DNA of 64,000 bases from Lama glama (taxonomy: Eukaryota). Below, piece by piece: positions 7,340 to 63,000 of the stretch (the first letter of the stretch is position 1; each line of letters starts with the position of its first letter). The notes beneath the pieces were generated by a model. That model had not been told where the DNA came from and ran no database searches. It saw only the letters and a list, made by a program, of their open reading frames with translations. The stretch is from assembly GCA_028534125.1 (NCBI GenBank), contig CM052816.1:53260001-53324000 (forward strand). The letters run 5' to 3'. The translations under genes were made by a program, and so were the position numbers.

Positions 7340-8685
7340 TTTTATTTTTTTAATGAAATATAGTTCATTTACAATGTTGTGGTAGTTTCTGGTATATAGC
7401 AAAGTGATTAAATTATATATATATTCTTTTTCAGAATCTTTTCAATTATAGTATATTATAAGATATTATATATAGTTCCCTGTGCCATACAGTAAGACCT
7501 TCTAATTTATTTTATATACAGTAGTTTGTATCTGCTAATCCCGAACTCTTCCTTTGTCCCTCCCCCGTCCCTTTCCTGTTTGGTAACTATAAGTTTGTTT
7601 TCTGTGTCTGTGAGCCTGTTTCTGTTTTGTAAATAAGTTCATTTGTGTCATTTCTTTAGATTCTACATATAATTGATGTATGATATTTTTCTTTCTCTTT
7701 TCTGTCGTACTTCACTTAGAATGATAATCTCTAGATCCATCCATGTTTGTGCAAATGGTATTATTTCATTCTTTTTTATGGCTGAGTAGTATTCCATTGT
7801 ATGCATATACCACAGCTTCTTTATTCAGTCATCTGTTGATGGACATTTAGGTTGCTTCCATGTCTTGGTTGTCATAAATAGTGCTGCTATGAACATTGGA
7901 GTGCATGTATCTTTTTGAATTAGAATTTTCTCTGGAAATATGCCCAGGAGTGGGATTGTTGGATCATATGGTAACTCTATTTTTAGTTTTTTAAGAAATC
8001 CTCATACTGTTTTCCACAGTGTCTTTACCAATTTACATTCGTACCAACAGTATAGGAGGTTCTCCTTTCTTTACACCCTCTCCAGCATTTATTATTTGTA
8101 GACTTTTTGACAGTGGCCATTCTGGCCAGTGTGAGGTGATACCTCATTGTAGTTTTGATTTACTTTTCTCTAATAATTAGCAATGTTGAGTATCCTTTCA
8201 TGTGCCTATTGGCCATCAGTATTTCTTCTTTGGAGAAATGGGTCTTCTGCCCATTTTTTGATTTTTTTTTTTTTGAGTTGTATGAGCTGTTTGTATATTT
8301 TGGAAATAAAACCCTTGTTTATTGCATCATTTGCAGATATTTTCTCCTATTCTGTGCATTTTCATTTTGTTTATGGTTTCCTTTGCTATTCAAAAGCTTG
8401 TAAGTTTGATTAGGTCCTATTTGGATTTTTTTGCCTTTGTTTCTATTGTCTTGGGAGGCTGACCTAGGAAAACATTGCTATAATTCATGTCTGAGAATAT
8501 TTTGCCTATGTTCTCTTCTAGGAGTTTTATGGCATCATGTCTTATATTTAAGTCTTTAAGCCATCTTGAGTTAATTTTTGTGTATGATGTGAAGGAGTGT
8601 TCTAACTTCACTGATTTACATGCAGCTGTCCAACTTTCCCAACAGCCCTTGTTGAAGAGACTGTCTTTTCTCCATTGTATATTCT
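7340..8685 (-). mobile_element. 5'-truncated L1 with TSD
   Basis: Minus-strand ORF2 remnant (8417-8611 [21 protein letters not shown]) plus 3'UTR and poly(A). Perfect 14-bp TSD ATGATGCATTTTTA at 7326-7339 and 8686-8699. Confidence 0.9.
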
Positions 8686-14295: not shown

Positions 14296-14377
14296 TTAGA
14301 CGTCTGGCTTTAACAGTGAAGGACAGAAAGGTCTGCCTGAAGCTGGCAGCAGATTCTCCCAATACTCTCTTCTAGCC
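14296..14377 (-). pseudogene. BHMT2: BHMT2 exon 8 (terminal coding part)
   Basis: aaaacgcag|G GCT AGA AGA GAG TAT TGG...; translates [26 protein letters not shown] with TAA at 14296-14298. Confidence 0.92.
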
Positions 14378-14856
14378 CTGCGTTTTAAAAAATACATAGT
14401 TGATTAATGGAAAGATTCATACCTATTTTATAAGCCCAATATGTTATATACATATTTGCTAAATACACATAATTTTAGTGGATGATCAAGCTCAAGTTGA
14501 ATTTAAGTCTCAACATACAGACAAAAAATATGCCCATATCCATTAATGCCAGGAGTCTACATTTCTGTCCTCAATAATAGTCACTGGGTTTCACACTGCC
14601 TTTCAGAAAAAGGCAATGTGTTTGAATTTACATGGTTCTGTGAATTACATTCATTCTGAAATTTCTATAGCGGGGTCCTTCTAGGTCTACTTAATAACAT
14701 AATGGCAAGTATATGAAGCCAGTTTTTAATGTACTGAGAAAGTAAAATTCTTCAAAAAGTAACTAAGGACAGAATACAAATTACTTTGTCAGTATTCATT
14801 CCTTGTTTTTAGACAAAGAAGAGTACAAAGTTTCCTGGTCACAGACCTCTATGTTA

Positions 14857-14870
14857 AATATATATATATT

Positions 14871-14907
<37 letters not shown>
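14857..14907. repeat. Compound (TA)n(TG)n microsatellite
   Basis: Seen directly. Confidence 0.9.
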
Positions 14908-16609
14908 TTTACAGTTTTTTCCACTTTACTTAATGAAATAATGAATAAATCAATATTTTTGGATGATGAAAATGTCAGAAATCTAGGGTGTCTACAGGTT
15001 TCTGTGTAATCACAAATTTTTGCGAACATCAGTATGTTTGGGAGTTTAGGGTGTAAGAAATTTCTGGCTTTATTCTACAGAATAATGTTTCATCTTTAAT
15101 TGTTCATGAGTTTTAAGGATCCCTAGACAATGCTTATTAAAATAAGCCATTTCTCACTTATATGAACTATTTTAATCATCACCAAAGTATGATTTCCTCA
15201 CCTTTTAATTATATTTCTATTTAGTACTTTTTTTCTAAGCCTGAGACCTATAAAAAACATCTTGAATAAATATCCCTATCTCCCAGAAGAAGTGTTTGCC
15301 TAAATGATTTCTTGCCTACTTTTACAATCCAAATTAATTTACATTAGGAAAGTTGTTCCAGTGCAAAAATAAAGACTGTTCTAAGTCCCACTGAAATAAA
15401 GTACAAAATGGATTGAAGACATAGCAGCACTAATTCAAGAAGATAGCCGAGATTGTGGCTGGTTTCTAGAAGATGGAAAAGGTGTGGCATTGTATTGACA
15501 GATGAGAAAGAAAGAGATAGAGAAATTCAAGGGGACCCCAGAAAAATGTCTTCCATAAATAAAGTGATTGATTATAACAAATAGCATAATTTAGATATTG
15601 GAAGATCTTCGAGAAGGTGAAGGCCTTTTATTCTTCTTTCAACAATAAAAAAGAAAGTTAATTAGAAATTCCTAGAAAACCAAATGCTGTACAAAGAAAG
15701 ACACAGTCCAAGGAGGAAACAAATTAATATATGGCCTGAATTTGGACTACGGATGAAATGTAAGAAAAGAGAACCAATTTGACCTTGATGCTTGGAACAT
15801 TCTCCTACAAGGGCTCAAGTTTTGTAAAAATAGGTTTATTTCTCTTTCTCCTTAGTTTCATGCTTACCGCTTGGTTCTGCAGTGAATGATGTTTAGAAAA
15901 TCATGACCAGGATATTAGATTGAAAATTTTACTGGAGGCACCAAGATATGGTAGATACCAGATATTAAAGCAAGACAGAAACTCTGCAGAAATTCCAAAG
16001 TAGGTGGCTAAGAACCAGACAGATGACTCACCTGACTCTACACTGGAAAATCTAGATCCCAGAGACCAGCAGGTTGGCTGGTGAGTGAAGAGGATGTGGT
16101 TAAATTGAGATCAGACCACACTCTCCAAGTTTGTCTCAATAGAAGAAGGATGAAAAGTCTTCTAGGCAGTTTAAGCCTTCTTGGAGAGGCAGGGCCAGCC
16201 TAGGGGTATTTAAAATCAAACCCAAAAGAGTCACCAGGAAGGAAAATGAGACTCCCAAAATAGGATGGGAGCATATTTGTAGTGGCCTGCTGATAAAAAT
16301 CAGGATCTGAGGGTGAAGCAGAGAAAAAGTTTTCAGAGAAAAATGCAATGCCTGTGACATGAGAAATATACACAGAAGTTTCCAGGGGGAAGCGTCTAAA
16401 GAACCATAAACGCACTCATGAAGATCTGCCAGGCCCAGAGAACGTGGCCTTCCTTTTAGGCTGCTGGTCTTTGAATCTGAAGAGGTCAGAAACCATGATG
16501 AACAAGATGAGAAGGGAAGGTTGGAAGCATAAGACAGAGAGGGAGAAGGCTCAGACTGGCCTTCCCTGGTTTCCTGCATATTGAAAGCTTCTGCTGGAAA
16601 AGAGGAGAA

Positions 16610-16659
16610 GTTTTAAGTTTGAAACTTGTTCCAGGTTTTAAGTTTGAAACTTGTTCCAG
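16610..16659. repeat. Perfect 25-bp tandem duplication
   Basis: GTTTTAAGTTTGAAACTTGTTCCAG x2. Confidence 0.95.
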
Positions 16660-17510
16660 TAAACTAAATGCTTAATTACTGTGTTAACACTGTGTTTGCT
16701 AAGTCAAATGGTCATGGGCTTTCTATCGCCTAAGAGTATTCAAAGAAGTTCTGGGGCATGCCAGTGTTTTCAAACAGGAACACAGGAAAAGAGTTCACCC
16801 ATGGAGCAGGTTTAAAGAGACAAAAGGAAACAAAAATAAAGTTGTATTCTGATTATATTTTATAAGCCCTCCTTTTTTAACATGACAATTATAATAATTC
16901 TGTAAATGTTATTTACTAGCTTTATATCTTTATAATAAATCTACAGACAAAGCTTGGAAAACTTAATTATAATTACAAAGCAGAACACAATGGTTATAAA
17001 CCTTGATGATTTGAAAGAAATGGTATACCTTCAAGAAGCCATGAGGTAGATGAGGGAGGAAAGGTAGAGGGAAGCAGAGTCAATTCTTATTTTACAGAGA
17101 GTGGAATCAAGAGATACTGCCTCATATTGATGAATTTAAAAATAACTGGTTAAATATGAAATTCAAACTTATAAAGATAACCAACAGAACAAGCAAAAAT
17201 GTAATAAGTCAGAATTGGGGGAAAGTGAACAGGGAAAGGGAAGATTATGTGATTTAAATTTCTTAACTTTCATAAAGAGTAATTACCACTTAAAATTGAT
17301 AAAACAAAAATAAACAAATAAGACTTCAAAACAAATGGCAAACAGGTGACCCTTAGAAGTAGGACTGGTGTCAGGAACAGGATGGCTTCTATTGTCATTT
17401 TACACACTTCTGTGCTTTGAATTTTTATCACCATGTGCATGAATAATTATTTACAACAATAAATAAAAGAGATGAGAGGAAAATAGTAATGTTAATTTAA
17501 AAATTCCTAC

Positions 17511-17739
17511 CTGGCTCTAATTCAAGGTTTGATGTGCATACTGAGACCACTTCCCCAGCTGCCATGTTTTTCTGAAGCTGGTGGCAAAAATCCCCTTTCC
17601 GGGGCCAGCTCCTCTGCCATCGCCCTGATGTGGTAGGGCTCAAATCCGCAGCACCCGCCTATGTACCTGACCCCCAGGTTGCAGGCCTCTCTGGCATATT
17701 TTTGAATATCCCATCTGGTTGCAACTCTGGGCTCCAGTC
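17511..17739 (-). pseudogene. BHMT2: BHMT2 exon 7 (229 nt) with in-frame stop
   Basis: ttacag|GA CTG GAG CCC...GCC AG|gtagga; translates [79 protein letters not shown] at 17522-17524. Confidence 0.92.
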
Positions 17740-17807
17740 CTGTAATACAGTAGTTAGAGCACTCCTGTTACCATCTTGGTTTTCAAAGGATCGATGTTCT
17801 GATGGGT

Positions 17808-18307
17808 NNNNNNNNNNNNNNNNNNNNNNNNNNNNNNNNNNNNNNNNNNNNNNNNNNNNNNNNNNNNNNNNNNNNNNNNNNNNNNNNNNNNNNNNNNNNN
17901 NNNNNNNNNNNNNNNNNNNNNNNNNNNNNNNNNNNNNNNNNNNNNNNNNNNNNNNNNNNNNNNNNNNNNNNNNNNNNNNNNNNNNNNNNNNNNNNNNNNN
18001 NNNNNNNNNNNNNNNNNNNNNNNNNNNNNNNNNNNNNNNNNNNNNNNNNNNNNNNNNNNNNNNNNNNNNNNNNNNNNNNNNNNNNNNNNNNNNNNNNNNN
18101 NNNNNNNNNNNNNNNNNNNNNNNNNNNNNNNNNNNNNNNNNNNNNNNNNNNNNNNNNNNNNNNNNNNNNNNNNNNNNNNNNNNNNNNNNNNNNNNNNNNN
18201 NNNNNNNNNNNNNNNNNNNNNNNNNNNNNNNNNNNNNNNNNNNNNNNNNNNNNNNNNNNNNNNNNNNNNNNNNNNNNNNNNNNNNNNNNNNNNNNNNNNN
18301 NNNNNNN
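17808..18307. other. Assembly gap (exactly 500 N)
   Basis: N run between BHMT2 exons 4 and 7. Confidence 0.99.
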
Positions 18308-18416
18308 TCTACACAGAGGAAGCAAGGGCACGCGACAGTCCAAAACCCTCACGAAAGTTGAAGGCTACGCAGTTTTGCCAAAATACAGTGATCCTTTCGT
18401 GTGACTCTAGGCTTAC

Positions 18417-18612
18417 CTCTGTGATCAAGAAAGCCACGTTTTTCCTGGCAAAAATCTCTAGCTGGAGTCAAAAAAGTTTTAATCCTTGCTTCATCCTTGG
18501 AGTGTTTGTACAGTGATGTCTGGCAGACCCCCCCCTCCCCCGCTATCAAAGCATCACCTTTGCCGGCTACTTCTCTGGCAAGGTCACAGGCAGCGAAGTT
18601 GACAGCTTCCCA
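18417..18612 (-). pseudogene. BHMT2: BHMT2 exon 4 (196 nt) with frameshift and stop
   Basis: cctcag|TGG GAA GCT...ACA GAG|gtaagc; reads [45 protein letters not shown], then shifts frame to [19 protein letters not shown]. Confidence 0.9.
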
Positions 18613-19583
18613 CTGAGGCTGGACAGCAAGAGCTCCAATGGTGAGCCTGGCATTTTAAAGGTGAACTTTAATAGATAACAGAGGGGGTAATGAGCAAGCA
18701 GGATGAGTACAAGTCACTGGTTTAAACTGCAATTCGAGAAGACCAGCAGAGTTGGGTACCGTGTCCTCTACCACCAGGGAGCTTGCATTTCCGTTATTGT
18801 GCTGACCACACTGGACATTAGTAAATGCTCATTTGTTCGTCTCCCACCCTTTACCTGTGAGCCACTTCAGAACAGGGTCTATGCCTTTGGATCATCTTTG
18901 TATCTGCCACAGAGCACGGACTTAGCAGGTATTCATTAAACGTTGGTTGGTTGAATGAATAAATGGACATTAATATTTACAAGTAATAACACTCTACACT
19001 TGCAGAGTATCTTACAATACTTCCATATCCTTCACCTTATCCGCTTTCCTCAACAACTCTATGCATATAAGCATAGATTATCTCCATTTTGCAGAGAAAA
19101 TCCCTGCTTCATGCAGTTAAGTGTCTTGCACAAAGTTACATAGCAGGTAGGTGGCAAAGTTGGGTATTAAACCCCATTCTCCTTCCTAGGCCAGTGCTGG
19201 GTTCCCTAGGCCCACCCTGTCTCCAGATGGAGAAGTCAGAAGAGAAGAAAGTGAAATGAGAAAGTAAAAAGAGCCTCTATAAAGTGTTCTTTCTCTATAA
19301 GAAAATAGCACAGAAGGACGGCCATGCCCTTCCAATGGCCTCTTTTCTCCCAATTCTATCCTCTCTCCCTCCCCTAGATAAAGAGACAGAAAAAGCTCGT
19401 TTATTTAGCACGTGTATGTTTACATAATGATGAATTACTTAATAAACATTTTATGTGGCGGAGTCTGTAATGAAGTGTAGTAACACATCGGGTCAGTTCC
19501 ATGGATGCCCCAAAAGAGGTGGTTTTATTGTAGACGAGCCCTGGCTCCCTCCCCCACCACCCACCTTCCACATTACAGTTTAC

Positions 19584-19675
19584 CTGACGGTCCATATTTT
19601 CTTCACTGGCAGAAAAGGTGAAAGTCTGCATAACATTTGATCCCACTCTCAAGAGTTCCATGTGAAGGTGACCGA
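19584..19675 (-). pseudogene. BHMT2: BHMT2 exon 3 (92 nt)
   Basis: ttcgtag|TC GGT CAC...CGT CAG|gtaaac; translates (V)[30 protein letters not shown]. Confidence 0.92.
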
Positions 19676-21044
19676 CTACGAAGGAGTTGTTTTTTTCACT
19701 GAAATTAAAAAAATGAAAAGTCACAGAAGCTATCATTTTCAGCAGCAGCTTACCCACCCACATCTCTTTCAATCATACACAACTCCAAACCTAATACTTG
19801 TAAAGAAATTCCGATTCAGGTCAGTAAAATTCAGGGACAGGACAAGGCAGAGACCCCATGAAGTGGGGGCTGTTTAGAGTAGCCTCGTATTGACCTGCTG
19901 ATGGGCTGCGTCGCCTGGTGTGGTCACGTGCAGGTATTAAGGCCTGGGTGGCCAGCTGTCCCTTGGGTCTCTTGGTCTAGAGAGGGTTTATTCATTTGCC
20001 AGTGTCACGAAGGATGTAGCTGGTCTACTTACAGTCGGCACTGGGGAGCCCCCCAAGAAGCACGAGGGCGTTCTCACAGTGGGCAGACCGTATGTGGGTG
20101 GCGCCCCATCTAATGGATTTAACGGCAAGCAGCTGGGTAGACGCAGTCAGGGAGCTTTCCTTGGCCCATCATAAAACCCGTCCTCTCTCTCTTCATCTCC
20201 CCGCACCCCCACCTCAATCTTTATCCTTGCTATTTCAACTTTCTTCCTGGTTTAGCAAAAAAGATCTTCTAAAATTAAGAACACGTTCTTCTTGGGCCAG
20301 ATGAAAACTTCCTGCTAGGTACTAGAGAGACAGAACTTTGCCCTACCATCTAACTGGGTGTCTGATGAAACAATAACCAGGGCCATCGGGTACTCATGAT
20401 ATGCGGGGCATTTCACGTGGGTTAACTTGCGAGTCCTCACAACCAGCTCCTGTCATGCGCCCATGTGACAGATGAAGAAACTGATTCTCAGAGTTCAAAT
20501 GACTTGCTCACGGTCACTCAGCTGATCAGAAGGACCAAGACATGACCCCACGTTTGTCTGATACACTGTGCATCTATGAATAAAATCAGAGCAAATCAGA
20601 AGTTCCATTCCCAGCTTGTATCCTGTTTCACCCCTTTCTTCTTTGGCCTTATTTTCCACTCTTAATTTAGGAGAACAAATACAAAAAAGAGCAAAAAGAG
20701 AATTTAAGTTCTAATTTGATGTTACTAACCAATCCAATTACAGTTTCTACCTCTAACTCTTTTTTTTCAGCCAGGAGGATGAGATAAAACTGTGTTTATT
20801 TCTTTGCTCCTTCCGTTCCCCCAACAGAACCTTGCTGTCTACTGTCTATGCTAAGCTAGTGATTACCACCATTAATCATCCCTACCAAACATACTGTTTT
20901 AATATTGTATGCAAATTAGCAAGAAAGGTGCATCTGAAGCAGTAACAATTTTGCTATGTTAAGGAAACTCTTTAGTATACAAGAGGGACATATTCATGGA
21001 ACAAATATTAAGATGTACATTTTAGTACCCCCTATATGTGAATA

Positions 21045-21050
<6 letters not shown>

Positions 21051-21087
<37 letters not shown>

Positions 21088-21089
21088 GT
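21051..21089. repeat. (TG)n microsatellite
   Basis: Seen directly. Confidence 0.95.
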
Positions 21090-21286
21090 AAGGGGGAGGA
21101 AGGATGGGGAGAGAGAGAGGTCATTTTCTTCTATTTGGTTTGACACATGTACTGTCACTGTCTTGACATCTTGGACATTTTGGCAAATGAAACAGTCCTT
21201 AGAAAACACTCGCTATTCCTTACTTTCAGTCAGATTTAAGCAAAATGTCACCCAGATAAACCCTCTGTGGCAATGCTGGCACCAAC

Positions 21287-21418
21287 CTGCATTAGGGCAC
21301 TCTGCTACTGCTTCTGGAATCCAGAGCCCAGCCTTCACATAGCCCCTCTTCTCCAGACTGAAGAGAAAGCTGCCATCTCCAACCACAACCTCTCCACTAT
21401 CCCGATGTTCCAAAATAC
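21287..21418 (-). pseudogene. BHMT2: BHMT2 exon 2 (132 nt, one base short of frame)
   Basis: cttcttccag|GTATTTTGGAA...GCAG|gttggt; the ancestral frame reads [43 protein letters not shown]. Confidence 0.9.
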
Positions 21419-23415
21419 CTGGAAGAAGAGAAGAAAAATCACCTAAGACCCTTCTTTTTTCTCTAAAAGCAGTTTCTAAATTTAGGAAAGGTGGTACAGT
21501 CCTCTTGCAGCCCCCACTCTGTTAAAATCATCAGTGCCTAATTGTGTTTCAGAAAGACTGAGTAGACTCTATGTCTTGGACAATCCAGGTCCTTAGTTTG
21601 TGCAAAATTCTGTGACTATTTTTGCTCAAATGCCATTTAACCCAAGTCAGATATAGTGAAAGTACTGATCTCATGATCGTTATTTTGGTTGTTCAACATG
21701 TTTGCGGCAATAAGTAAAAAAGCAGACTTCAGATCTTTTAAGTCCCTCATCTAGTCTCTTTCTATTTTACTACCTTTCTAGAGAGTCAGCCCACCCGTAG
21801 CCTGAATAAAAGGTTGCATCCAGAGCAGTTTTCCAAGACTTCCGGTTTTCACTGTCAACAAAGTGCTTCCCCAGACGCCTGCACAGCTCGCCCTCTCACT
21901 TCCTTCAGGTCTTCGCTTAAGGGTCATTTTTTTCAGAAAGGCCTTCCCTGTGATTGATTAAAACAGCAAACACCCCTCCACACCCCTCCCTGGGGATCCC
22001 TGTCCTTCTGGTGTAGATGGCAAGAGTTGAGACACAACCTTTTATTGAAAATACAGGACAGTTCATCTCAGCCCTGCCTACAGCAGCACCCACAGACCAG
22101 AGCATGAATGGGGGATGAAAGGCTCCAACTGCCCCTTCTAACCAGTCACATCTGCCACCCAGGAAGGTACATTAGAAGCAGCTGGACTGAGACTGAGCAC
22201 AGGCCACCATCCCAGCACATCTCTGTTCTCCTGTGGAGGGCAGTATGTTAGTACTGTGTTAGCCATAAACACTCTTCTGACAGAGAGAGCTCCTGACTCT
22301 GTTTCTTTTTCTATACTTTATATCTAAAGATGAATTTCAGCTGAATATAGAAGAAATGTTAATATATTCTGTGATTCTCACCTCTCTCTCTAGTCCTTAC
22401 ATAAAATGAAATCTGTTCTTTTTGTTTTGTGCTTTTGAAACAACAAAAAAAAAGACTTAAAACTTCAACTTTGCATTGAGACCTTCCCACATGCCAGGTC
22501 TAGTTCTAGGCAAGAGGGATAAATGCTGGAATAAGACCTGGTCCCTGCCCTCAAGAAGCTCCAAGCCTGGCTACCCTGAGGAAGGCCATCAGAGCAACAG
22601 GTCATCACGGCCCAGCATGATAAATAAAGGCTGCAGAGGGACATGGGGAGAGAGAATCAGAGGTGTAGTCCTCTGCATAAAATCTTGTCTTGAAAAATCT
22701 AACCCATTTCAATGAAGCTAACCATGTTAAGAATCAAATTTAATCTTACACATCAAACAAAACACTGGTCCACAATTTGGGTGTTATGGGTTAGTTTCTC
22801 ACCTCCCACATCCCATTTGTCATAGGGTTACACCACATGTATCCATTTAACACATCTCATATATGTCCCCCCATCCTTACTGCCCCCTGGACGATTGAAA
22901 TGTTCTCTAGTTCACTCCAGCTTACTCTAAACTATCTTCCATTGCTGCCAGAGCAACGCCTTGCCTGCCCTTCTCCTATCTGTGATGACATCCTCCTTTG
23001 TATCCTGCTTACCTTCATACAACCTCTGTTCCTGCATCCATCACCTGTACCGCAGCACCTGGTTACTTACCTGCTGCCTCCGTTTGGCTGTGAGATGCTT
23101 GAGGCTCAGGTGACATCTTATCTCTGTCCCTACCACCTCATAAACACCTAACAGCGGGCTCTTCATAAACTACGCCACGAATTAGCAGACAGGACTGTTT
23201 TGAAAATGTCACATAGCTCACATATGCTACAAGTTTGGTCCTGATGAGGAGGAAAAATAATGATACTCTTTAACAGAAAATTAGCTAGGGTTTTAAGACA
23301 ATTATAGTGTAAATTTTGACTGTGCCCTCATGATGCCAAGTAAAGGTAAAACATTTTGATCTGTCATCTAGATGTTTGTCTGACATTTTAAATTTTGCCA
23401 GTTTTCTAAACAGCC

Positions 23416-23510
23416 ATTAGCATGCATGAGGTCCTGGGTTCAGTCCTCAGTACCTTCGTTAATAAAAAAAAAAAAACTAATTTCCTCCCCTCCCCCCAAA
23501 AAGTTAAAAA
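23416..23510 (+). mobile_element. 5'-truncated tRNA-Ala-derived SINE
   Basis: TTAGCATGCATGAGGTCCTGGGTTCAGTCCTCAGTACCT followed by an A-rich tail. Confidence 0.7.
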
Positions 23511-24964
23511 AATAAAATTCATAAAATACAGACAATTAAAATAAAATTATAAAATTTATAAAATAAAAATAAAAAAATATAGACAGTTCTAGAATGACAG
23601 AGGACTGTAAAATAAAAAGCACTGTAAATTATTTGCAGTATTTTCATATTTTCATTCTACCCTCTCTTTCAGTTTGGCAGTGACTCCGCCTCAGATCTGA
23701 TCATGAGCTCTGAGAGGTATTTATGCCCCCTTTTTGTAGATAGCAGTATCTACACCTCTTGGATTGAAGATCTGGCTTCAGGGCACCTCTATTCATACAC
23801 AGAGAAGACCAACTTTACCCTGTTGCAAGAAGCTGCCAGAGGTCCATTCTGTTTAAAATATCTCCCTATTTGTGGGAAATTGCCACCAGGACTCCTTTTT
23901 TGGGTTTAAGAAGCAATTGGAGGAGTCCTCTGTGGCAGCTAAATGAATTCTTAATATGCACCTGTTAGCTTAGAAGAGTGGTGACATTAGCTCCACCCCA
24001 CTCACATTTTAACACCCAGGTACATATTAACCTGTATTTTTGTGTGATAATGTTGGTGTTGCCAAGAACAGAGGCCAGGAAGAAATAAAACAGGGACAGC
24101 ATATTTTTAAAAAGCCTTAAAAAAAGAACTGGTAAAAATGAATATAATATTAGGGAAAGTTTAAAGAAATCAGCACTGTGTTCTTTTTCTTCAATGCCCA
24201 TATTTTACTTTTTAAATCAGAAAACATGTCCAAAATGTGTGGGGGTTTTTTGTTTCATTGTTTTTTAAACCTATATTCCACATCTTATATAACTACTACC
24301 ATTATTGTGTCCTTCCTTACAGTGTGTGGATAAATATTTTTATACAGTTGGGATCAGTCTGTGATTATGATTCGTATCTCCTTTTGTAACTTAACATTGC
24401 CAAAGCACTTTGCCTGTTGTCATATGTAGCTTTTTAATTGGTTGCCTAATAACTTATTAAGTGGATGAACTTGGATTTATTTAGGGAGCCCACGACTGTA
24501 GAGCATCTTGGTTTTTCCTAACTTTTTAGTATAAATAAAATGGTGGTGCACGTTTCCGAGTCTGTATCGCCCCTTCCTTCCCCACTCTTTCTTCTGCATT
24601 AGGAGGCACAGATGGGTTGCTTTGAGGAATTTGGAGGTGTACTAGTTCATGTCCTTCCTAATTGTTTTGTCACCCCTTCTCCCCACCACTCACACAACCA
24701 GCGTAGAAATGGGGGACGAAGCGACAGCTGGCAACTAGATAGGGAAGGGGGAGCCGAGAGACAGGGAGTACCTGATGAGATGAGGTGAAACCCTCCTCCG
24801 TGCCCTTCGCATCCCACTCTCCAACCCTGCCTGTGAGTGTCCGCTCCTGGACAGGTTTCAGGCCAGTGCAAGGTTTGGGGGCTCAGGCAACGGCCACTTC
24901 CCAAAACATGAAGGGAACCAGCTCTTGGGCCATTGAATAGATGGGCTGTGGGTGCGGGTGGGCT

Positions 24965-25310
24965 GATTGTAGAAGATGTGAGAGCAGCCGGAGTCTGAAG
25001 GCTAGATTTCAAATCCCCACTCCACTTGGACTAGAACGGTGACCCTGAGCTAGTCGTCTGAGCCTCAGTTTCCTCACCTTGTAAAACGGGGATAAACGTG
25101 AAGAGATAATTTGTGTAAAGCACTCGCGCAGTGCCGGGCACCGAGTCAAGGCCCCACAAATGTTACCCAAGATTGTAATCTCATCCTAACACCTGGGCAG
25201 TACCGTCGTCCCCGCGACTCGCGATCGGGTAAACCGAGGCTCAGAGCCGTCCAGGTGCCTCGCCCAGGCTGCAGAGGCTGGCTAGAGTCAGAGTTGGAGC
25301 CCCGCGGCCA
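24965..25310. mobile_element. Two MIR-like SINE fragments in opposite orientation
   Basis: MIR core CTGAGCCTCAGTTTCCTCACCTTGTAAAACGGGGATAA on +, and a reverse core GGTAAACCGAGGCTCAGAG near 25229-25247. Confidence 0.6.
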
Positions 25311-25347
25311 GGAGGGCTGAGTAACTCTCGGGATCTCCCAAACTCAC

Positions 25348-25380
25348 CTTCTCAGCGCCGGGGCCTCTGAGCGGTGCCAT
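25348..25380 (-). pseudogene. BHMT2: BHMT2 exon 1 coding part (33 nt)
   Basis: ggcgcgATG GCA CCG CTC AGA GGC CCC GGC GCT GAG AAG|gtgagt = MAPLRGPGAEK (human MAPAGRPGAKK, recalled). Confidence 0.85.
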
Positions 25381-25526
25381 CGCGCCAAGGCTGTGCGGGC
25401 GCGGGGTGGAGGGGAGCGCGCGGGGCCAGGAGCCCGCCCCTCGCCCGGGGGGAGGCTCGCACCGCCGCGGCCGACTGCTGCCCTCAGAGCAGGGGCCCGG
25501 CCCTCGCCCTTGGCCCGGGTCTCGCC

Positions 25527-25627: not shown

Positions 25628-26514
25628 GTGAGTGGGGCCGGGTCTGCTCGGAGACCTGCGGCTGGGCGGCTGCGGGGTGCGAGAGCGGGGCCAAAGCGGT
25701 CCCCAGCTTAGGAGCGCCTCAGACCCCCAGAAATGGGCATTGGGGTTTCTTCTTGAATTACTTATGTTTTCTTTTCCATGCCCAACCGTCCAGAGTGAGA
25801 GTGTCAAAGGGTTTCCGGTGCCAAGACTCTCCTATCCCAACCCCCTTCCCCAGTCGACTGCTGGCAGTGTCTTCTGTATCTATCCGGAGATGGTCTATGG
25901 GGAGGCAAACACAGGTGTATATACGGTCTGTGGTTTACTTATACCTTGATTTTTACAGTATGTCTTGGAGAAGCTCATGATCTAGCTAGGAAGACCCTTA
26001 TACAAATAAACATATCAAGCCACCAAGCAATAATTATAATTAGAGAAGTAGGTACACGGTGAGAGGAAGTTACACGAGGAAGAGCATCGTATTCCATCTG
26101 GCTCTCTTCAGCCTGGGACACATTGGAGGGAGGAGGTGATCCAAGATTATAGATAATGAACTTCATGATGAGTATGGTTTTTTATGATTATAAGTGCTCT
26201 TAAAGTAAACTAAGAAAAATATTCTCTAGATTATTTGAGGAAAGTCATCTGTTCACAATTATTTAGCTCTATTAGTTATTTACAATGGGTGGGGATTACG
26301 TGGAATGGGGTTCAAATGCCTCCCCCCGCAACTGGGTTGCCTAAGTTAAGTTTAGGCTCCTCAAATGATTAAATCAGTACATGGACATCTCACAGGAACT
26401 AGATGTTAAGCACTAGAGGAATAAGTAAGGAGAAGTGCACTAGTCAGGAAAACAAACAAAAAAACTGTAACTATCACAGCCTAGTAAAGCTACCATTAAA
26501 AAAATGTCTTCCAG

Positions 26515-33458: not shown

Positions 33459-33686
<228 letters not shown>

Positions 33687-52617: not shown

Positions 52618-53070
<453 letters not shown>

Positions 53071-53310
53071 TAGTCTGAGGGAGTCGTTCCACAGATTTCT
53101 GGTTGTTGTTCCAGTCCCATAGCTAGCTGCCTACATTTAGAAAGGTAGCCAGGAAAGTGGGAAGAGGATGGCTGTTGGGATAGTCGGAAGGGCTGACAGA
53201 ATATGCAGGCCAGCTGATTCCATCTGGGAACATTCAAAATGGCCTCCCATAGAGTCTCCCATGGAGGATCATCTTGAATGTGTCAGGCACTGCACTTAAA
53301 ACATTACCAT

Positions 53311-53514
53311 TATCCTCAACACCCATTTATGATAAAAACTCTCGCCAAAGTGGGTATAGAGGGAACATATCTCAACATAATAAAAGCTATATATGACAAA
53401 CCTACAGCCAGCATAGTTCTCAACGGTGAAAAACTCAAAAGCTTCCCACTAAAATCTGGGACAAGACAAGGATGCCCACTATCACCACTCCTATTCAACA
53501 TAGTCCTGGAAGTC
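53311..53514 (+). mobile_element. L1 ORF2 reverse-transcriptase segment running into the gap
   Basis: Open frame [66 protein letters not shown]. Confidence 0.92.
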
Positions 53515-54014
53515 NNNNNNNNNNNNNNNNNNNNNNNNNNNNNNNNNNNNNNNNNNNNNNNNNNNNNNNNNNNNNNNNNNNNNNNNNNNNNNNNNNNNNN
53601 NNNNNNNNNNNNNNNNNNNNNNNNNNNNNNNNNNNNNNNNNNNNNNNNNNNNNNNNNNNNNNNNNNNNNNNNNNNNNNNNNNNNNNNNNNNNNNNNNNNN
53701 NNNNNNNNNNNNNNNNNNNNNNNNNNNNNNNNNNNNNNNNNNNNNNNNNNNNNNNNNNNNNNNNNNNNNNNNNNNNNNNNNNNNNNNNNNNNNNNNNNNN
53801 NNNNNNNNNNNNNNNNNNNNNNNNNNNNNNNNNNNNNNNNNNNNNNNNNNNNNNNNNNNNNNNNNNNNNNNNNNNNNNNNNNNNNNNNNNNNNNNNNNNN
53901 NNNNNNNNNNNNNNNNNNNNNNNNNNNNNNNNNNNNNNNNNNNNNNNNNNNNNNNNNNNNNNNNNNNNNNNNNNNNNNNNNNNNNNNNNNNNNNNNNNNN
54001 NNNNNNNNNNNNNN
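53515..54014. other. Assembly gap (exactly 500 N)
   Basis: N run. Confidence 0.99.
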
Positions 54015-55252
54015 GTTTTTATGGCTGAGTAGTATTCTATTGTATAAATATACCACCTCTTCTTTATCCAGTCATCTGTTGATGGACATTTAGGCTTTTC
54101 CCATGTCTTGGCTATTGTAAATAATGCTGCTATGAACATTGGGGTGCAGGTATCATCCTGAAGTAGGGTTCCTTCTGAATATATGCCCAGGAGCGGGATT
54201 CCTGGGTAATACGATAAGTCTATTCCTAGTCTTTTGAGGAATCTCCATACTGTTTTCCACAGTGGCTGCACCAAACTGCATTCCCACCAGCAGTGTAGGA
54301 GGGTTCCCCTTTCTCCCATTTGTGGAACTTTTAATGATGGCCATTCTGACTAGTGTGAGGTGATACCTCATTGTAGTTTTGATTTGCATTTTTCTGATAA
54401 TTAGCAATATTGAGCATTTTTTCATGTGCCTATGGGGCATTTGTATGTCTTCACTGGATAATTGCTTGCTAAGGTCTTCTGCCCATTTTTGGATTGGGTT
54501 TATTATTATTATTATTATTATTATTATAATAAGTTGTATGAGCTGGAATTTATATATTCTGGAAATTAAGCCCTTGTCAGTCTCATCTTTTGGCAATATT
54601 TTCTCCTATTCCATAGGTTGTCTTTTTGTTTTGCTTATAGTTTCCTTTGCTGTGCAAAAGCTTATAAATTTAATTAGGTCCCATTTGTTTATTTTTGCTT
54701 TTATTGCTATTGCCTGGGTAGACTGCCCTAGGCAAACATTGCTAAGATTTATGTCAAATAATGTTTTGCCTATGTTTTCTTCTAAGAGGTTTATAGTGTC
54801 TTGTCTTACGTTTAAGTCTTTAAGCCATTTTGAGTTTATTTTTGTGTATGGTGTAAGGGAGTATTCTAACTTCATTGATTTGCATGCTGCTGTCCAGTTT
54901 TCCCAACACCATTTGCTGAAGAGGCTGTCCTTATCCCATTGCATGTTCTTGCCTCCTTTGTCAGATTAACTGACCAAAAGTTTGTGAATTTATTTCTAGG
55001 CTCTGTGTTCTGTTCCATTGATCCGTATGTCTGTTTTTGTACCAGTACCATGGTGTTTTGATTACTGTAGCTCTGTAGTATTGTCTGAAGTCTGGGAGGG
55101 TTATTCCTCCTGCTTCATTCTTTTTCTTCACTATTGCTTGGCAATTCTGGATCTTTTGTGATTCCGTATAAATTTGAGGATTATTTGTTCTATTTCTGTG
55201 AAAAATGTCCTGGGTAATTTGATAGGGATGGCATTAAATCTGTAGATTGCTT
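54015..55252 (-). mobile_element. L1 ORF2 C-terminal region with its 3' end running into the gap
   Basis: Minus-strand ORFs [16 protein letters not shown]..., [12 protein letters not shown]..., [10 protein letters not shown]...TCTPMFIAALFTIAKTW...EYYSAIK; internal (TTA)n at 54501-54530. Confidence 0.92.
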
Positions 55253-56840
55253 CTATTTGTTTTTTTAAATAAACTTCTTTCTAAATATAATTGAATTGTA
55301 CTTTTAAATTTTCATTTCTCTTATTGTGAATGAGATGAATATCTTTTGAGTATCTGCTTCCTCTTTGGCTAACTGCCTTTGTGGCCTTTGTTCATTTTTC
55401 TATTGGTTAAACCAATACGGGAGGTGGAGAGGAAACTAATTAGTCTTTTGTCTGTGATGTGAGTTATAAACACTTCTTCCAGTTTATTGTTCACCTTTTG
55501 ACTTTGCTTACGGTGGCTTTTCTGTGAAAAAAAAATTGTGTTGTTAAATTTCTCTTTTCTTTTAGCCTTCTGGATTTTTGGGGGGTCCTATTTGGAAAGG
55601 CATTTCTCACTCTGAAATTTTGAGCATTTTCATGTTTTCTTCCATTCTGTGTGTGTTTGGTTTGGTTTTCACGTTTTTACCTTTGATGCATTTAGTATTA
55701 ATTTTACTTTAAGGTGTGATAAAGTACGGATTCAAATGTTCTGTTTTCTCATGGCTATCCAGTTGACTTGAAATGTTGCACGAATCATGTCACATTCATG
55801 AGGTCTCCATGTCTTCTGTTCCACTTGTTCTTGCAGGTCTTTATGTGATGGTCCTGCACTGTTTTGAGTATTTCAGCCACGTAATGCATTTGAATATCTG
55901 GTGGGACTGCTTCCTCTTATTTATCATTTTTATAATTATCTGAGCTACCCTTTCTAGTTTATTTTTCCATGAAAACAGCTTCTTAAGGTAACTGCATGGT
56001 GATATTACCAATCATGAAATGTGATTAGGCTAAGATGTTTGGGATTTTTTTCTGCACACAAAAGCAGAAAGTAGGAGGTAACTTGACATCCTAGAAAGAA
56101 AACTGGCGCTCAGAGGGACGAATTTCAGTCTCCCATCTGCAGAACATTCTGTGGCCTTGAGCTAAGCCAGGGTGATACTTGAAATGACCCGAGTGGTAAA
56201 GATTAATGAGGGAAAACAAGCCCCAACTTTTTATAAGATCATTTTTCTCTTTTAGTAATTTTAGGAAGCCAACTCTCTCGGGGTAGTTGAATCTTTCTTA
56301 ATGATTAGGAATCATGCAAAATTTCTGATTGCTCATCTGTGGTACTATTTGGGTATAGTTTGCTAAAAAGCAAATTGTTCTAAAAGCTTGGTAAGAGAGT
56401 GGTGAATGGAATTCAGTTTTTAGAGGTTTTATTCACAAACATTTTGTTAGGCTTTCCCATATTTTTCAACAAACCAATGAATCTAATGAAAGTCTCTTAG
56501 AAGCGCATTTTTGTTACTTTCCCATTGCAGTTTCAGGGTTGTAAACCCTCACATTTCTGTGTTCTGACTAACGTACAACAATATTAAAAGCACAGGACTT
56601 GGCTCTTGTTGCAACTTTCCTGCCGAAGGGATCAAAGGCATTTGCTATTGTTCCTTCCCGATTCTCCCGGGATACTGGGAGATTCTGCAGTCTCTTGCGG
56701 TGCATACTTGTAAAATGTCTTGGATTTGCAGAGGTTTTCATATTATTATTTAATAATGGGTCTCAAGATTTCAGGATTTCTACCAAGGGAAAAAAACAAA
56801 GCTCAAAAGTTCAAGTAAAGCATGAATTAAAAGGAAAGAA

Positions 56841-56933
56841 GAGGGGAGGATATAGCTCAGTGGTGGAGTGCGTGCTTAGCATGCGTGAGGCCCTGGGACC
56901 AATCCCCAGTACCTCCATTAAAAAAAAAAAAAA
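56841..56933 (+). mobile_element. tRNA-Ala-derived SINE (Vic-1-like)
   Basis: GGGGAGGATATAGCTCAGTGGTGGAGTGCGTGCTTAGCATGCGTGAGGCCCTGGGACCAATCCCCAGTACCTCCA plus poly(A). Confidence 0.88.
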
Positions 56934-56990
56934 CCTGTCTAAAAGATATATTTGTTAAAAAGCAAGCAGAAACTGAAGCTCTAAAACCCC

Positions 56991-57692
56991 TGTTGTATAT
57001 GGAATTGTGGTTCCAAAAAGATATGTCCAAGTCCTAACCTCTCGACCTATGAATGTGACCTTATTTGAAAGTAAGGTCTTTCTTTTTTCAAGTTATTTTT
57101 TAAATTGAGGTATAATTTACATATAACATTTTGTAAGTTTAAGGTGTACAGCATGTTGAGATGATACATTTATGTATTACCACCACAGCTTCAGCTAATA
57201 TCTCTCTCACATTGCACAACCATTTTTTTGTGGTGAGAACAATTGAGATCTAGTCTCTTAGCAGTTTTGAAGTGTATGAGTCAGTATTACTGAATATTGG
57301 AAATAGGGTCATCATGGATGGATTTTAAGTCAAGGTTCTCAAGAGGAGATCATCCTGCATGTAGAGTGGACCCCAAATCCAACAACTGGTATCCTGATAA
57401 AAGAAAGATTTGACATACAGAGACAGAGAGAAGATGGTGTGAAGATGGAGGCAGGGATTGGAATGTGTTTACAACCCAGAAAACGCGAACGGACTCAGGT
57501 GGTGCCTGAAATCTAGGCATGGAAGGGATTCTCCCTTGGATCCCAGAAAGAACCAGCCCTGGGGCATCTTGGTTTCAGACTGCTAGTCCACTAACTGTGA
57601 GAGAACACATTTCTATTGTTTTAAGCCCCCTTTGGTAATTTGTTGTGATAATTTGTTATTGGGGGGACAATGAGGCCACAGGAAACTCACAT
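56991..57692 (+). mobile_element. MLT1-type MaLR LTR interrupted by an antisense L1 3' fragment (about 57085-57295)
   Basis: AAAAGATATGTCCAAGTCCTAACC...GAATGTGACCTTATTTG and TGTGAGAGAACACATTTCTATTGTTTTAAGCC are MLT1-like motifs. Boundaries approximate. Confidence 0.75.
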
Positions 57693-60600
57693 GGACCTCT
57701 TTACCTGTCAAGAGAAGCTGAGCAGAAAAGCTTTTGTTCTCAGAATCCAGGAAAATTGTGAAGCAGAAGAAATACTTCACAGCTTCCTTGCTCCCTTCAG
57801 TACCCCCAGCCCCTATCCTGACTCCCAGGACCTCCACCCGTGATCAGCTACCACAGCTTACAAGCTGGTTCACAGGATGGTGGAGCCCAGTCGTGTGGGG
57901 GTGTTGACCCTCTCAGGAATATTTTTATTCCTAAAACACTTGGGAAGGGCTTTATCACAAAGGAATTCTCCTGCTGGAATCTCTGGAACTGGCACATGGT
58001 GGGGTGGATTTTACAGAGGCCTCCCTGTCCTGTCCCCCTCCCCACTTCCCCAGGGACCCTGGGTTCCGTGGCTTCATTAGAGCAAAGGAAGGTCCCCACC
58101 ATCTCCAGCTGCACCACTGCCCTTTCCTGGCCCAGCGCCCTGCAATGAGTGGGGCCGGGGCGGGCAGGGCAGATTGGCCGGGAGGTTAAGGCTTGTGGGG
58201 GGCTGTGGGGAAACTGACCCCTAACCCCACTCCTATCCCACACCCTGTCAAGTGTTCGGTGAAGGAATGACTTCTCAGGAATCTTTGGAGTGAGCTTTCT
58301 TTAGGGGAGATGAAGAGAAATGCTTATTTCAGGCAAGAGCAGAGGGCTTGGGTGGGGGCTGGTGTATGTTAGCACAGAGACAGGAGCTTCCACAGATCTC
58401 ACTGAAATGAAGGGAGCAGCTGAGCTGAGCAGCCTCAGAAAAATCACAGTGAAAATTTTTCGCATTTCTCTTTGGTTTTTTAGCTTAGAAAAATTCAGGA
58501 GTGGGGGGAAAAGGCTGGTTGGCACAGTCTGGTTGTGGTGGGTCCAGTTACTAGGGAGAGAGGAGGTGTGCAGGACTGAGATTGGCTTAGTCCTGGAGGC
58601 CAGGGGAGGGAGTCGGGAAGCCTCGGTTTCCTCCTGGCTGACAGCAGATAAGGCCCTGAGAGTCTCTGGGGCTAAAGTCAGGGAACTTGTTTTCCTCCTG
58701 CCGGGCCAGCTTTGGGCTATTCCTAACCAGGTTCAAAATTGTTGCCCTGTAACATTCTCTCTGGCTCCTGGATATTTTGCTGATGGGTATAACCTCATTA
58801 TGTTCCTAGTCAGTAAACACTGAGAATTGACATTTTAGTCTAGAAAGTGTTATCTCTATGGAACTAGTGGATGGGTTGTAAGTATGGTTGGTTGAACTCC
58901 CTTGTAGTCATATTGGTCTGGGGTCAAAGTGCATGTTGTGGTAAGTTCCAGAAACGGACTCTGAGCATATTTTCTCTTTCATGTAGTACGGAAGTTTTTA
59001 TTTGCCTGAAGTAAATGTCCAACAGTGTCCCACCTAAACAGAGTCTACAGATGACATACTTCAAGATACACTGTGTCCCCTGCAACCTGAAGAATGTGTC
59101 CACTAATGTTCAGTTTCTGTAAACGACACTGGTGTGAATGAAGCGCAAACCACAGTTATGTTTGTCAATCTCATGTAGGGTGGGGCAAGGTATTTCTAGT
59201 TACCTGGTTCACTTCTGAGGCCACCTTTCTGAGAAACACCACCGTCTCTTACCACTCTTCCAAGCTAAAACCTTACCAAACCGCAGCAGCTCTGGTGAGA
59301 TTCCAGGCACAGCCCACTGGCACCTGACAAAGGCAAAAAAGACATTTACTCATGGCTGGCGGGCTCACCTGCAGTTTCAGGTGTGGAGTTAACTCAGGTA
59401 TGTCATCTTTTAAAGCTATGGCTCCAAATCTGCTACGTGTGCATTGATCTCTGCTTATGGAATTGCTACTTGTGTTCATTTACGCAGGCCAGAAAATATT
59501 AATATTATAAACTTCTAAAATGCCATTTGGTAGAAAAGTTAAAAAATATAATGTTTCCTTAAGCCACAAAAATATAGCAACGCTTAATTTTAGGACTCTG
59601 TATTGTTAGGGTTGTATGTGGTGTTTGATCCCTGAAAAGGGTGTTTGCCAGTTTAAAGTAACTCTCTGCCTTTTTCATCCTTTAACTCTTGCTATCTCCC
59701 CATTCCAGCCCACCACTCCCCCCACACCCCCCACCAAGAGAAAGCCTGCAGGAGGCCAGTGGTCTCATTCCATCGTTTAAAGGACTGAATGCAATCATCC
59801 ACTTGGGGATTCCATCCATCAGATCAAATGTTTGGGTTTGTTTTGTTTGGTCAATGAAAAAGCCCCAATTGGCTGTTTCCCAGTCCAGTCTACATACCAC
59901 CGTGTGAAAGCCAAGACCAAGCGTCCTCCCAAGAAACAAGAGAAAATGGGTAATTCTGTGAGCTGAGAAGCCAACAGTTCTCCATCCTTCCCACCAAAGC
60001 CTGTTCAAAATTTAACACTTTGTTTGCCTGTCCAAGGTCTCCAGAAGTGGAGGGCAGAGGAGCAACCACAGCAGCCAGCCTCATTCACTCATTTATTCCA
60101 GTAAACTTTTGCTGAGTATCTATTATGTGCCAGATGCTGTTCTGGGTCCTGTGATAAAGCTGTTGTGTGGAGGAAGAAGGTTCAGGACACCCACAAATCA
60201 TACCATATAGATTTAAGGTCAACCCTGGAGAGAAATAGTCTTAGAACCTTATGGCAAAGACATTGTCATCACTTGTCTCTGCCCCACGCTCCATCCCATA
60301 TCCATCCTGACAAGTGAATATGGCCAGTGGCAGAGAACTCACTCTTCTCACGTAGGACTGCTCTTCCCATCAGTTCCAGCTTCGCCCCCTAGAAAGACAC
60401 AAAAGCATCATGTTCCTTCTTACCCATGATCACCCTTCCAACATCTGAAGTCAGCTGCCATGTTTCTGTCAGTCTTCACACTAAAGGTAGGGACAAGTTT
60501 GTGGGAGGATGGCCCCAGCTGGGTCCAAGGAAATACCTGGGTCTTTCTGGAAACTGCTGGGGCATATCCACCAGAAGTCTGTTTGAATGAGTCTGTGAAG

Positions 60601-62294
60601 ATCCTATTAGGAATGAATTTATCCAAGAAGAGGAGTAAGACTGAGGTGACTAGCTTGATCCATCACCAAGCCTTGATCACTGGAGAAAGGGGCAAACCTG
60701 AGCAGAGCTCTGGGTCTCAAAACGGACTTTTCAAATACATGTGTGTGTATATGCATAGAAAAGGAGTGAGACAAAATGTTGGTTTCTTTTTTCCGAGAGG
60801 TTGGGTGATTTTAATGTTTTCTTTATACTTTCAAAATATTTTCATATTTTCTACAATGAATATATAAAACGTGTTAATAGAATACAATTTTATTTTAAAA
60901 ATAATTTAGAAACTAATTTTCCACAGTGATCAACTTGTCTCCTCCTTTTCACTGTAGAACAGAGGCCCTCTAGTTTACATAATAAACAATATTCATAAAA
61001 TGCTGTTGAGATCAGCAAATACGCATTGTAGAATTGTTCGCGTGTTATTTGTTGGTATTACCCTCTCTCTCTCCAAGTGTCAGACAGAAAACATCTGGCA
61101 CTAGGCCCATAAGGACGCTTTAAAATTCCTTAATGACTTTCTTTAAACAAGCAAATCTTCATTAGCATTTGTATATTTGAAAAAATAAAAATAACCGCCG
61201 ATAAAAATCTGTTTTCCCCTAGAAGATTGCAAAGGATCTCTTAATGAAGGCTGGAGACCAGGGCATAAAGGGAAAATTTCTAGAGCAGTTAAGCAATCTT
61301 TCTTAACACATAATCATGTTCAACTAAAATTGGTTTTCAGATTCTTAAGAGATTGACAAAACTGATCAAAAACATTCACACACGTGAAAATGACCATCTA
61401 GAGAACTTGGTTTGTAGTTTCAGAACTTAGGGAAACAGTGACTCTGAATTATATTTTGTGACCAAGTGATTATTGAATGCATGGGATAAGATTTCCAGTA
61501 AGCATCTTAAAACTTTTAAAACTATAGATTCCATTTTTCTCAACTCCGTTGGTTGGGTGGTCATCAGATTTTGTTTCTTTCTAACATCATGGTAATCACA
61601 CAAACAAGCTGTTTTCTATTTCATTGCTGGGTTTAAGGTTACAGGGTGAAAATGGTCACACTAAATCAGTGTTAAGGCTGGCTCACTTGAGACACATGTT
61701 TCCAGATGGGCCCTGGGATGCGATGGGATCTCCTTGGAGACCAGTGGCTTTGAGGAGTTTGATAAAATGGGATTAGGAATAAACTTGACTCATTTGCAGT
61801 TCATTGATGGTCTCTGGTCTGGAAAAATGCTCTTTAATGTAACTGAAATAAGTATTTCAAAATCGAAGTGGAGAGGGGAGGATTGAAAAGGTTAAAATTA
61901 TCGCCCAAGACTTGTGATTTTATGGACCTTTTTTTTCCTTCCCTAATTCTTATTTAGTCCTATGTAATGATGACCTCTTCACAGTTGCCACGGAGGTAAC
62001 TGATTTAAATGGGACACACTGAAGTGACTCTCGTTCCTAGAAGGAAGCAGAGTATACACTAGGGTCCCTCTCATCTCAGGAGGAAGATGAGTTTAGGGAA
62101 AACAAAACTTTGAATGGTTGACTTTTTTGACTTTAGGAAAACATGTTTGGGATTCTCTAAAATTAATGTGAAATGAACCCTATGTTGCATCCTAGCTTGT
62201 GGTGGAGCAGTTCACCTAAAAGTTCATTTACAGTCAATTCTCAACTGTTAGACACAAGTTCTTCTGTGTATTTACGGAGTCTTCTTGCTAATAG

Positions 62295-62775
62295 TGTTAC
62301 CGAAGGCAACTTTGTGTGCCCGATGCACTGTGAGGCCGAACAAACTGAAACATGAGTTTGGAGCAGAGAAAAGTTTATTGCAGGGCCGAGCAAGTAGGAT
62401 GGGGTGGCTCATGCCCAAGAAAACCACAAACTCCCCAAAGGGTTTCAGCAAAGCATATTTAAAGCCCAGGTAAGGGAAGGGGGATCGCAGGGTACATGAT
62501 CAGCTCGTGCACAGTTCTCTGACTGGTTGATGTTGAGGTAACAGGGTGGTCAACACTACCCACCCCTAGGTGCCAAAAGTTCTGGGAGCCACGTGCTCTT
62601 GATCATCAAATAGTTCATTTCTTCCTGTTGGTGGCAGTTTTTAGCATCTGAAAAAACTCAGGAAATATACATGACATACTGTTATCTGGGGACTTCAGGA
62701 GGACCTACAGCAGAGGATATGAGGGAGGGTCTGACCCTGGAAGGCCCCTCAGGGTCCTGGTCCTGCTTGGTTACA
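62295..62775 (-). mobile_element. Solo LTR, ERV1-like
   Basis: TGTTAC...GTTACA termini and minus-strand AATAAA (TTTATT at 62374-62379). TSD imperfect (ATAG/GCAG). Confidence 0.65.
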
Positions 62776-62779
62776 GCAG

Positions 62780-63000
62780 CACAATTTAGTGTCCAAAACT
62801 TGAACTCTGGAACCAGGCTGCGTTCAAATCCCAGCTTCATTATTTACTGGCTGTGTGAACTTGAGCAATCACTTCATCTCCCTGTGCTTTGGCTTTCCAC
62901 ACCTGTAAAGAGGCAGTAATTACAGGAGCTCCTCATATAATCGGTGTGAGGATTAAAAGAGTTACTACACGTAAAGCAGAGAGAATAGCGTTTAGCATGT
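62780..63000 (+). mobile_element. MIR SINE (other MIR fragments near 6200-6450, 19000-19180, 20390-20560, 26890-27075, 31310-31530, 36380-36520)
   Basis: GTTCAAATCCCAGCTTC...TACTGGCTGTGTGAACTTGAGCAA...GTGAGGATTAAA MIR motifs. Confidence 0.7.

Follow-up and report, generated by a model that had tools for sequence, protein, structure and literature searches.

The stretch analysed here, referred to as the window, comprises 64,000 nucleotides (nt) of contig CM052816.1 from Lama glama, and contains a BHMT2 gene with a broken reading frame next to an open DMGDH gene. It is mammalian DNA interrupted by two gaps of exactly 500 N each (17808-18307 and 53515-54014). Searched by tblastn with six BHMT2 and BHMT proteins as queries, the window gives minus-strand matches to BHMT2 exons 2, 3, 4, 7 and 8; exon 1 was placed at 25380-25348 on the same strand, bringing the visible exons to six of eight. 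Exons 1, 3 and 8 have the expected length and every visible splice site is GT-AG. DMGDH lies on the opposite strand, its start codon 146 bp from that of BHMT2, in the head-to-head arrangement usual at the BHMT2/BHMT locus. A first-pass annotation, made from the letters of the window, had proposed both this arrangement and a camelid origin; the former is as described, and the latter agrees with the 98% identity of DMGDH to Camelus, which points to a close relative of that genus, likely a South American camelid. BHMT itself was not found within the 64-kb window. The features of the locus are given below, with residue numbers of lesions, here and throughout, following pig BHMT2.

14296..14377, minus strand: coding part of BHMT2 exon 8 up to the normal stop TAA; missense change S359L
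17511..17739, minus strand: BHMT2 exon 7, 229 nt; W333* (TGA, 17524-17522); missense changes Y280C, I301M and T330I
17808..18307: 500-N assembly gap, the expected site of exons 5-6 (zinc ligand C208)
18417..18612, minus strand: BHMT2 exon 4, 196 nt against 192; missense changes D145A and A149T
18468..18480, minus strand: 2-nt deletion in an A-run (18480-18477) and R133* (TGA, 18470-18468)
18529..18540, minus strand: G-rich tract with a 6-nt in-frame insertion (two extra residues)
19584..19675, minus strand: BHMT2 exon 3, 92 nt, normal length; missense changes R57G, Q58H, F63L and A66V
21287..21418, minus strand: BHMT2 exon 2, 132 nt against 133; missense changes R16H, L17R, T45I and H52C
25348..25380, minus strand: BHMT2 exon 1, 33 nt, with ATG and GT donor intact
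25381..25526: CpG-rich spacer of 146 bp between the BHMT2 and DMGDH start codons
25527..52891, plus strand: DMGDH exons 1-12, 2032 nt, open and GT-AG, serving as a local control

By its position and sequence the window gene is identified as the syntenic BHMT2 orthologue of a camelid and not as BHMT, because two features of BHMT are missing from it, the 9-residue N-terminal insert (as the alignment shows at the exon 3/4 junction) and the C-terminal oligomerisation helix (the stop TAA at 14298-14296 follows directly after residue 363), and because it falls outside the clade, with support 100, that unites the six BHMT proteins. The insert and the C-terminal helix are named as the distinguishing marks of BHMT in a passage of PMC4516251. 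Among the visible residues, 201/234 are identical to pig BHMT2 and 171/234 to camel BHMT. Since alignment, identity counts and tree all place the gene with BHMT2, a BHMT fragment was rejected; a processed pseudogene was rejected because introns and GT-AG sites are present at the syntenic position. Taken by itself, exon 7 cannot tell the paralogues apart, sharing 69/74 residues with pig BHMT2 and 70/74 with camel BHMT, and this similarity between tandem paralogues at 17511-17739 could explain the adjacent assembly gap. Zinc ligands C290 and C291 are kept in exon 7, and C208 would fall within the gap.

Four frame-breaking lesions, two frameshifts and two stops, can be read directly from the sequence of three exons. 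The acceptor AG of exon 2 (21420-21419) is followed by only two bases of the Gly12 codon, a 1-nt loss, and the transcript spliced at canonical sites leaves the frame at codon 12 and reaches a stop at codon 39. In exon 4, four bases (18480-18477) stand where two Lys codons are expected, a 2-nt deletion, and the TGA at 18470-18468 is R133* in the ancestral frame; the two frameshifts sum to three bases, so that the frame returns late in exon 4 and meets R133* two codons on. The TGA of exon 7 is W333*, which removes the last 31 residues. It lies 11 nt upstream of the last exon junction, and by the usual rule a stop so near that junction would, alone, escape nonsense-mediated decay. An open 363-codon reading frame is thus absent, with stops at codons 39 (spliced frame), 133 and 333. 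The lesions that the first-pass annotation had reported in exons 2, 4 and 7 (21418, 18468-18480 and 17522-17524) are all present where it put them, with exons 2 and 4 on one side of the gap at 17808-18307 and exon 7 on the other; the in-frame insertion of 6 nt in the G-rich tract of exon 4 (18540-18529) was not part of that annotation. Two of the four frame-breaking lesions are base substitutions, which run-length error does not explain.

Several routes by which a product might be rescued were examined. Fourteen AG sites were tested in the interval from 90 nt before to 60 nt after the beginning of exon 2, and two restore the frame, both with poor pyrimidine tracts (5/20 and 7/20, against 18/20 at the canonical site); rescue through another acceptor was rejected on that account, and because the stops in exons 4 and 7 would remain. 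A common 299-residue isoform lacking exon 4 exists (e.g. human isoform 2), and rescue by skipping this exon was likewise rejected, as the exon 2 and exon 7 lesions persist. A search of the whole window did not locate BHMT2 exons 5-6, which are presumably inside the 500-N gap at 17808-18307. Their deletion was rejected as an explanation, given that both gaps are exactly 500 N and that next to the second gap DMGDH, too, has no visible exon beyond exon 12. Intron 7 of BHMT2 carries a perfect 25-bp tandem duplication at 16610-16659.

Beyond the frame-breaking lesions, the remaining coding sequence appears to have drifted. A read-through of the visible exons, with X at the breaks, was aligned with 49 BHMT2 and six BHMT proteins; five bovid models were set aside, and the other 44 BHMT2 proteins, all intact and eutherian, served as the reference. 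These 44 agree throughout at 112 of the visible columns; the window gene departs from them at 12, spread over exons 2, 3, 4, 7 and 8. When each reference was left out in turn and scored against the rest, it gave 0 to 3 changes, with 27 references at zero and 22 changes in all; references with close relatives score low for that reason, and the lone pig, horse, elephant and tenrec also score 0-3. In DMGDH only 1/355 invariant residues is changed (against 31 references), and the contrast with 12/112 is strong (Fisher P = 2e-7). With 0.142, the window gene has a longer terminal branch than any other of the 31 sequences in the tree (mouse 0.100, pig 0.029, camel BHMT 0.005). By this protein-level measure BHMT2 reads as a gene without purifying selection. 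Since run-length errors cannot produce changes at invariant residues, these changes add support for a pseudogene, the state that the first-pass annotation had proposed and that two frameshifts, two stops and 12/112 altered invariant positions now substantiate. Its argument that open DMGDH exons (12 of them, 2032 nt) speak against general sequence error also holds: all 12 are free of stops and flanked by GT-AG, and the two genes differ as 1/355 to 12/112.

The changes at invariant positions also allow a rough date. Counting 13 events at 113 invariant codons (the 12 missense changes and W333*), and with 2.3 replacement sites per codon, we obtain ~0.053 changes per replacement site (95% range 0.027-0.095), background included. 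At the rate of 7e-9 per generation and 5 years per generation given in PMC7331169, neutral drift yields an age of ~38 million years (19-68). The same source, in the part concerned with divergence, puts the Lama-Vicugna split at 2-3 million years, and the BHMT2 loss is, on this substitution estimate, far older. Camelus is stated in PMC13751797 to have split from South American camelids 'more than 11 million years' ago, and the loss probably predates that split as well. A cruder check uses a 44-residue intron-derived peptide of the neighbouring gene, in which 4 differences from C. ferus amount to 0.041 over both branches; its range (0.011-0.115) is compatible with the age estimate and too loose to decide. 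That the loss is shared with Camelus is accordingly a reading of the dates that we consider likely, and we predict that it is fixed in South American camelids.

Public sequencing runs offer a view of the locus from outside the assembly. We compared 362 sampled words of 18320-21700 with 24 public runs; 14 DNA-type runs, under four organism labels, contain 95-99% of the words. If the three lesion sites in this stretch were errors, ~12.6 words would be missing, which sets a ceiling of 0.965; run X1, not marked as a possible source of the window DNA, contains 0.99 (P = 0.014, even sampling assumed). A run lacking all the lesions together with the ten missense changes in the stretch would have a ceiling of 0.913, and all 14 DNA-type runs exceed it. 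Taken in aggregate the word shares therefore appear to support the window sequence, and they verify no single lesion. Six RNA-type runs contain 0.05-0.10 of the words, near the exonic share of 0.098, and are not counted as evidence of transcription. In the protein searches no camelid BHMT2 stands among the matches listed (e.g. 120 of 905 in one search and eight in another), while Camelus BHMT and DMGDH do appear; Camelus ferus BHMT is an intact 407-aa model (P0302). Among 415 proteins the best match reaches 84% for exon 2 and 84% for exon 4. A metagenome scan with exon 4, covering 41/64 parts, gave no camelid host contig and one unrelated 39% match.

We conclude that the window very probably holds a real and probably old BHMT2 pseudogene of a camelid, broken by frameshifts and stops. 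A number of observations weigh against this conclusion and deserve to be set beside it. Each of the three indels falls within or next to a base run, the stops of exons 4 and 7 are 161 and 284 nt from the gap edges, and the lesions are read from the assembly. Word shares of 0.95-0.97 are uninformative on the lesion sites by themselves (P 0.5-0.97), W333* is outside the word-sharing stretch, and 6/14 runs may be the source of the window DNA, with studies P1 and P6 the only ones that include no such run. At a 95% threshold for conservation the contrast is weaker (15/161, against up to 8 in references). Of protein clusters with 40, 60 and 120 members, 15 members each were covered, and an intact Camelus BHMT2 could be hidden among the others. 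The dating, finally, rests on 13 events and spans about 19-68 million years. The run-associated indels, the stops near the gap edges and the reliance on assembly sequence are what one would cite for an intact BHMT2 whose apparent breaks arose as consensus errors where a fragmented assembly approaches a gap. We regard that explanation as barely credible, considering that two lesions are substitutions, that 3.1 kb separate the gap from the lesion in exon 2, that invariant residues are changed across five exons at 12/112 against 1/355 in DMGDH, and that all 14 runs lie above 0.913, the share expected if lesions and missense changes alike were errors.

A different possibility is that the lesions are real and recent, confined to South American camelids or even polymorphic, with a working BHMT2 in Camelus. 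The lower dating bound of ~19 million years is near the 16-17 million years of the split between Old and New World camelids, and no Camelus BHMT2 sequence was found among the cluster members listed, which leaves room for this view. The same protein lists include Camelus BHMT and DMGDH and not Camelus BHMT2, the four organism labels share 95-99% of words, and ~0.05 changes per replacement site far exceeds what the 2-3 million years of the Lama-Vicugna split (dated in PMC7331169) would produce; a recent loss is in our judgement unlikely. It might also be that this copy is dead while a duplicate elsewhere keeps the function, in which case the loss would not be unitary. The DNA searched for a copy was that of the window, which favours caution; the broken copy is, on the other hand, the syntenic one beside DMGDH, and no camelid BHMT2-like protein appears among the matches listed in the protein searches, and a functional duplicate thus seems highly improbable. 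With an old pseudogene as the preferred reading, it is very likely that BHMT2 makes no enzyme, and the animal is likely a natural knockout.

The methyl group that BHMT2 transfers to homocysteine comes from S-methylmethionine, a compound of plants and yeast (PMC4516251). An animal with the window allele would lack this route of homocysteine remethylation, which would then rest on BHMT and methionine synthase. A transcript started at the putative CpG-rich promoter common to BHMT2 and DMGDH would be expected to undergo nonsense-mediated decay, and an isoform that skips exon 4 would still lose its last 31 residues to W333*; the CpG-rich spacer may persist because DMGDH needs it. We favour relaxed selection as the cause: a foregut fermenter would receive little intact dietary S-methylmethionine and would draw methionine from microbial protein. 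Relaxed selection after the onset of foregut fermentation is, tentatively, the most likely cause of the loss. BHMT2 is reported inactive in viable C57Bl/6 mice in the Discussion of PMC4516251, and S-methylmethionine-dependent methylases are recorded for rumen metagenomes in one table row of PMC5114307. Against a dietary cause stand five deer models and the snub-nosed monkey protein with 0-2 invariant-site changes, which imply that foregut fermentation is not sufficient; nor was destruction of S-methylmethionine in the foregut found shown in the literature searched.

The bovid models bear on the same question. All 13 of 13 BHMT2 models from cattle, yak, sheep and goat look damaged, these being protein models and not DNA: 6/6 Bos models are without a stretch including W160, and 7/7 sheep and goat models are without zinc ligand C208 or more. 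Outside the count of 13 there are two more models from Ovis in which BHMT2 is fused with BHMT (the proteins, fusions included, are P0040, P0282, P0071, P0283, P0275, P0284, P0244, P0290, P0243, P0118, P0350-P0352, P0058 and P0353). Invariant residues are changed at 7-8 positions in cattle, 6 in yak and 5 in goat; in sheep a mis-modelled region inflates the count, which stands at 15. Among eight deer and musk deer models, five keep the tested residues and miss no more than 11 positions; the other three lack exon 4 and have 299 residues. For wapiti, red deer and musk deer (P0288, P0289 and P0291) no form other than this shorter one appeared, the red deer model bearing the name 'BHMT2-like'; it may simply be the common isoform, or exon 4 may carry a lesion that such models conceal. 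Sheep BHMT2 mRNA was detected in liver according to the relevant part of PMC13211359. An independent loss of BHMT2 in Bovidae is, from these models, possible and should be treated as a lead only. The first-pass annotation had called the camelid loss lineage-specific, which may be too narrow, because bovid BHMT2 models also look damaged. It is tempting to speculate that BHMT2 was lost repeatedly in foregut-fermenting artiodactyls because their foregut microbes consume plant S-methylmethionine ahead of uptake by the host, with one loss on the camelid stem tens of millions of years back and separate losses in Bos and in sheep and goats; we hold this broader idea to be doubtful. If it were true, BHMT2 would be naturally knocked out in camels, alpacas and the main ruminant livestock, and deer would provide a ready control.

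The neighbouring DMGDH shares 646/658 identical residues with Camelus ferus and C. bactrianus, and 628/677 with pig. Its sole changed invariant position is G228E in exon 5 (33459-33663), where Camelus keeps G. DMGDH exons after exon 12 were not found in the remaining 11 kb (52892-64000); exons 13-14 are probably in the second gap, 53515-54014, which abuts an interspersed repeat also present at 7773-8685. In intron 1 of DMGDH an open 44-codon stretch (25795-25926) corresponds to a peptide that several isoform models of Camelus DMGDH contain, sharing 39-40/44 residues with P0123, P0124, P0127 and P0128, and is likely an annotated cryptic exon. The spacer of 146 bp between the two genes has a GC content of 0.83 and a CpG observed/expected ratio of 0.80, as would suit a shared bidirectional promoter.

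No report of camelid BHMT2 loss was found among the literature matches listed; an automated loss call may well stand in TOGA tables, outside the search. BHMT2 was not found in the supplement files of PMC6386725 (nine) and PMC5865188 (three), and a supplement of PMC11694762 gives it as non-significant (rho -0.144, Q 0.88). PMC4516251 describes BHMT2 as present in all mammals examined, and its Table S1 has no camelid and no BHMT2 entry for cow. The camelid loss appears to be new, while unitary loss of a dispensable enzyme is an ordinary kind of event. Its value lies in what it makes testable: a lineage living for millions of years without BHMT2 would be a natural knockout through which the role of the enzyme can be approached, and a review (PMC13209565) calls the contribution of BHMT2 across species, in the passage that treats it, a research priority. 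The loss predicts that camelids cannot convert S-methylmethionine, or vitamin U, to methionine. Were the bovid lesions real, livestock transcriptome studies in which BHMT2 expression is taken as a sign of methyl-group metabolism (e.g. PMC13211359) would be reading a pseudogene.

Compared with mammalian BHMT2 in pig (NP_001191700, P0316), minke whale (P0249) and white-tailed deer (P0052), the window gene has the same DMGDH neighbour, exon lengths and phases; it differs from intact mammalian BHMT2 in its two frameshifts, two stops, two-codon insertion, 12 changed invariant residues and longest branch. Unitary pseudogenes of metabolic enzymes are familiar in mammals from GULO and UOX, and the window gene resembles that type in its intron-containing orthologous locus, several independent lesions and relaxed constraint. 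It departs from it in that the loss is read here from the window sequence. The Bhmt2 of C57Bl/6 mice (Discussion of PMC4516251; Liu et al. 2010 as cited in PMC13209565) is a parallel in function, where missing activity is compatible with normal development; that difference separates strains of a species whose protein is intact (P0005), whereas the window would represent an old structural loss in a lineage. The bovid models (cattle XP_003586562.3, labelled 'LOW QUALITY PROTEIN', yak P0283, sheep P0244/P0290 and goat P0118/P0243) also look broken and also show raised invariant-site changes, yet their lesions differ from the camelid ones, affecting the W160 stretch in Bos and C208 or more in sheep and goat.

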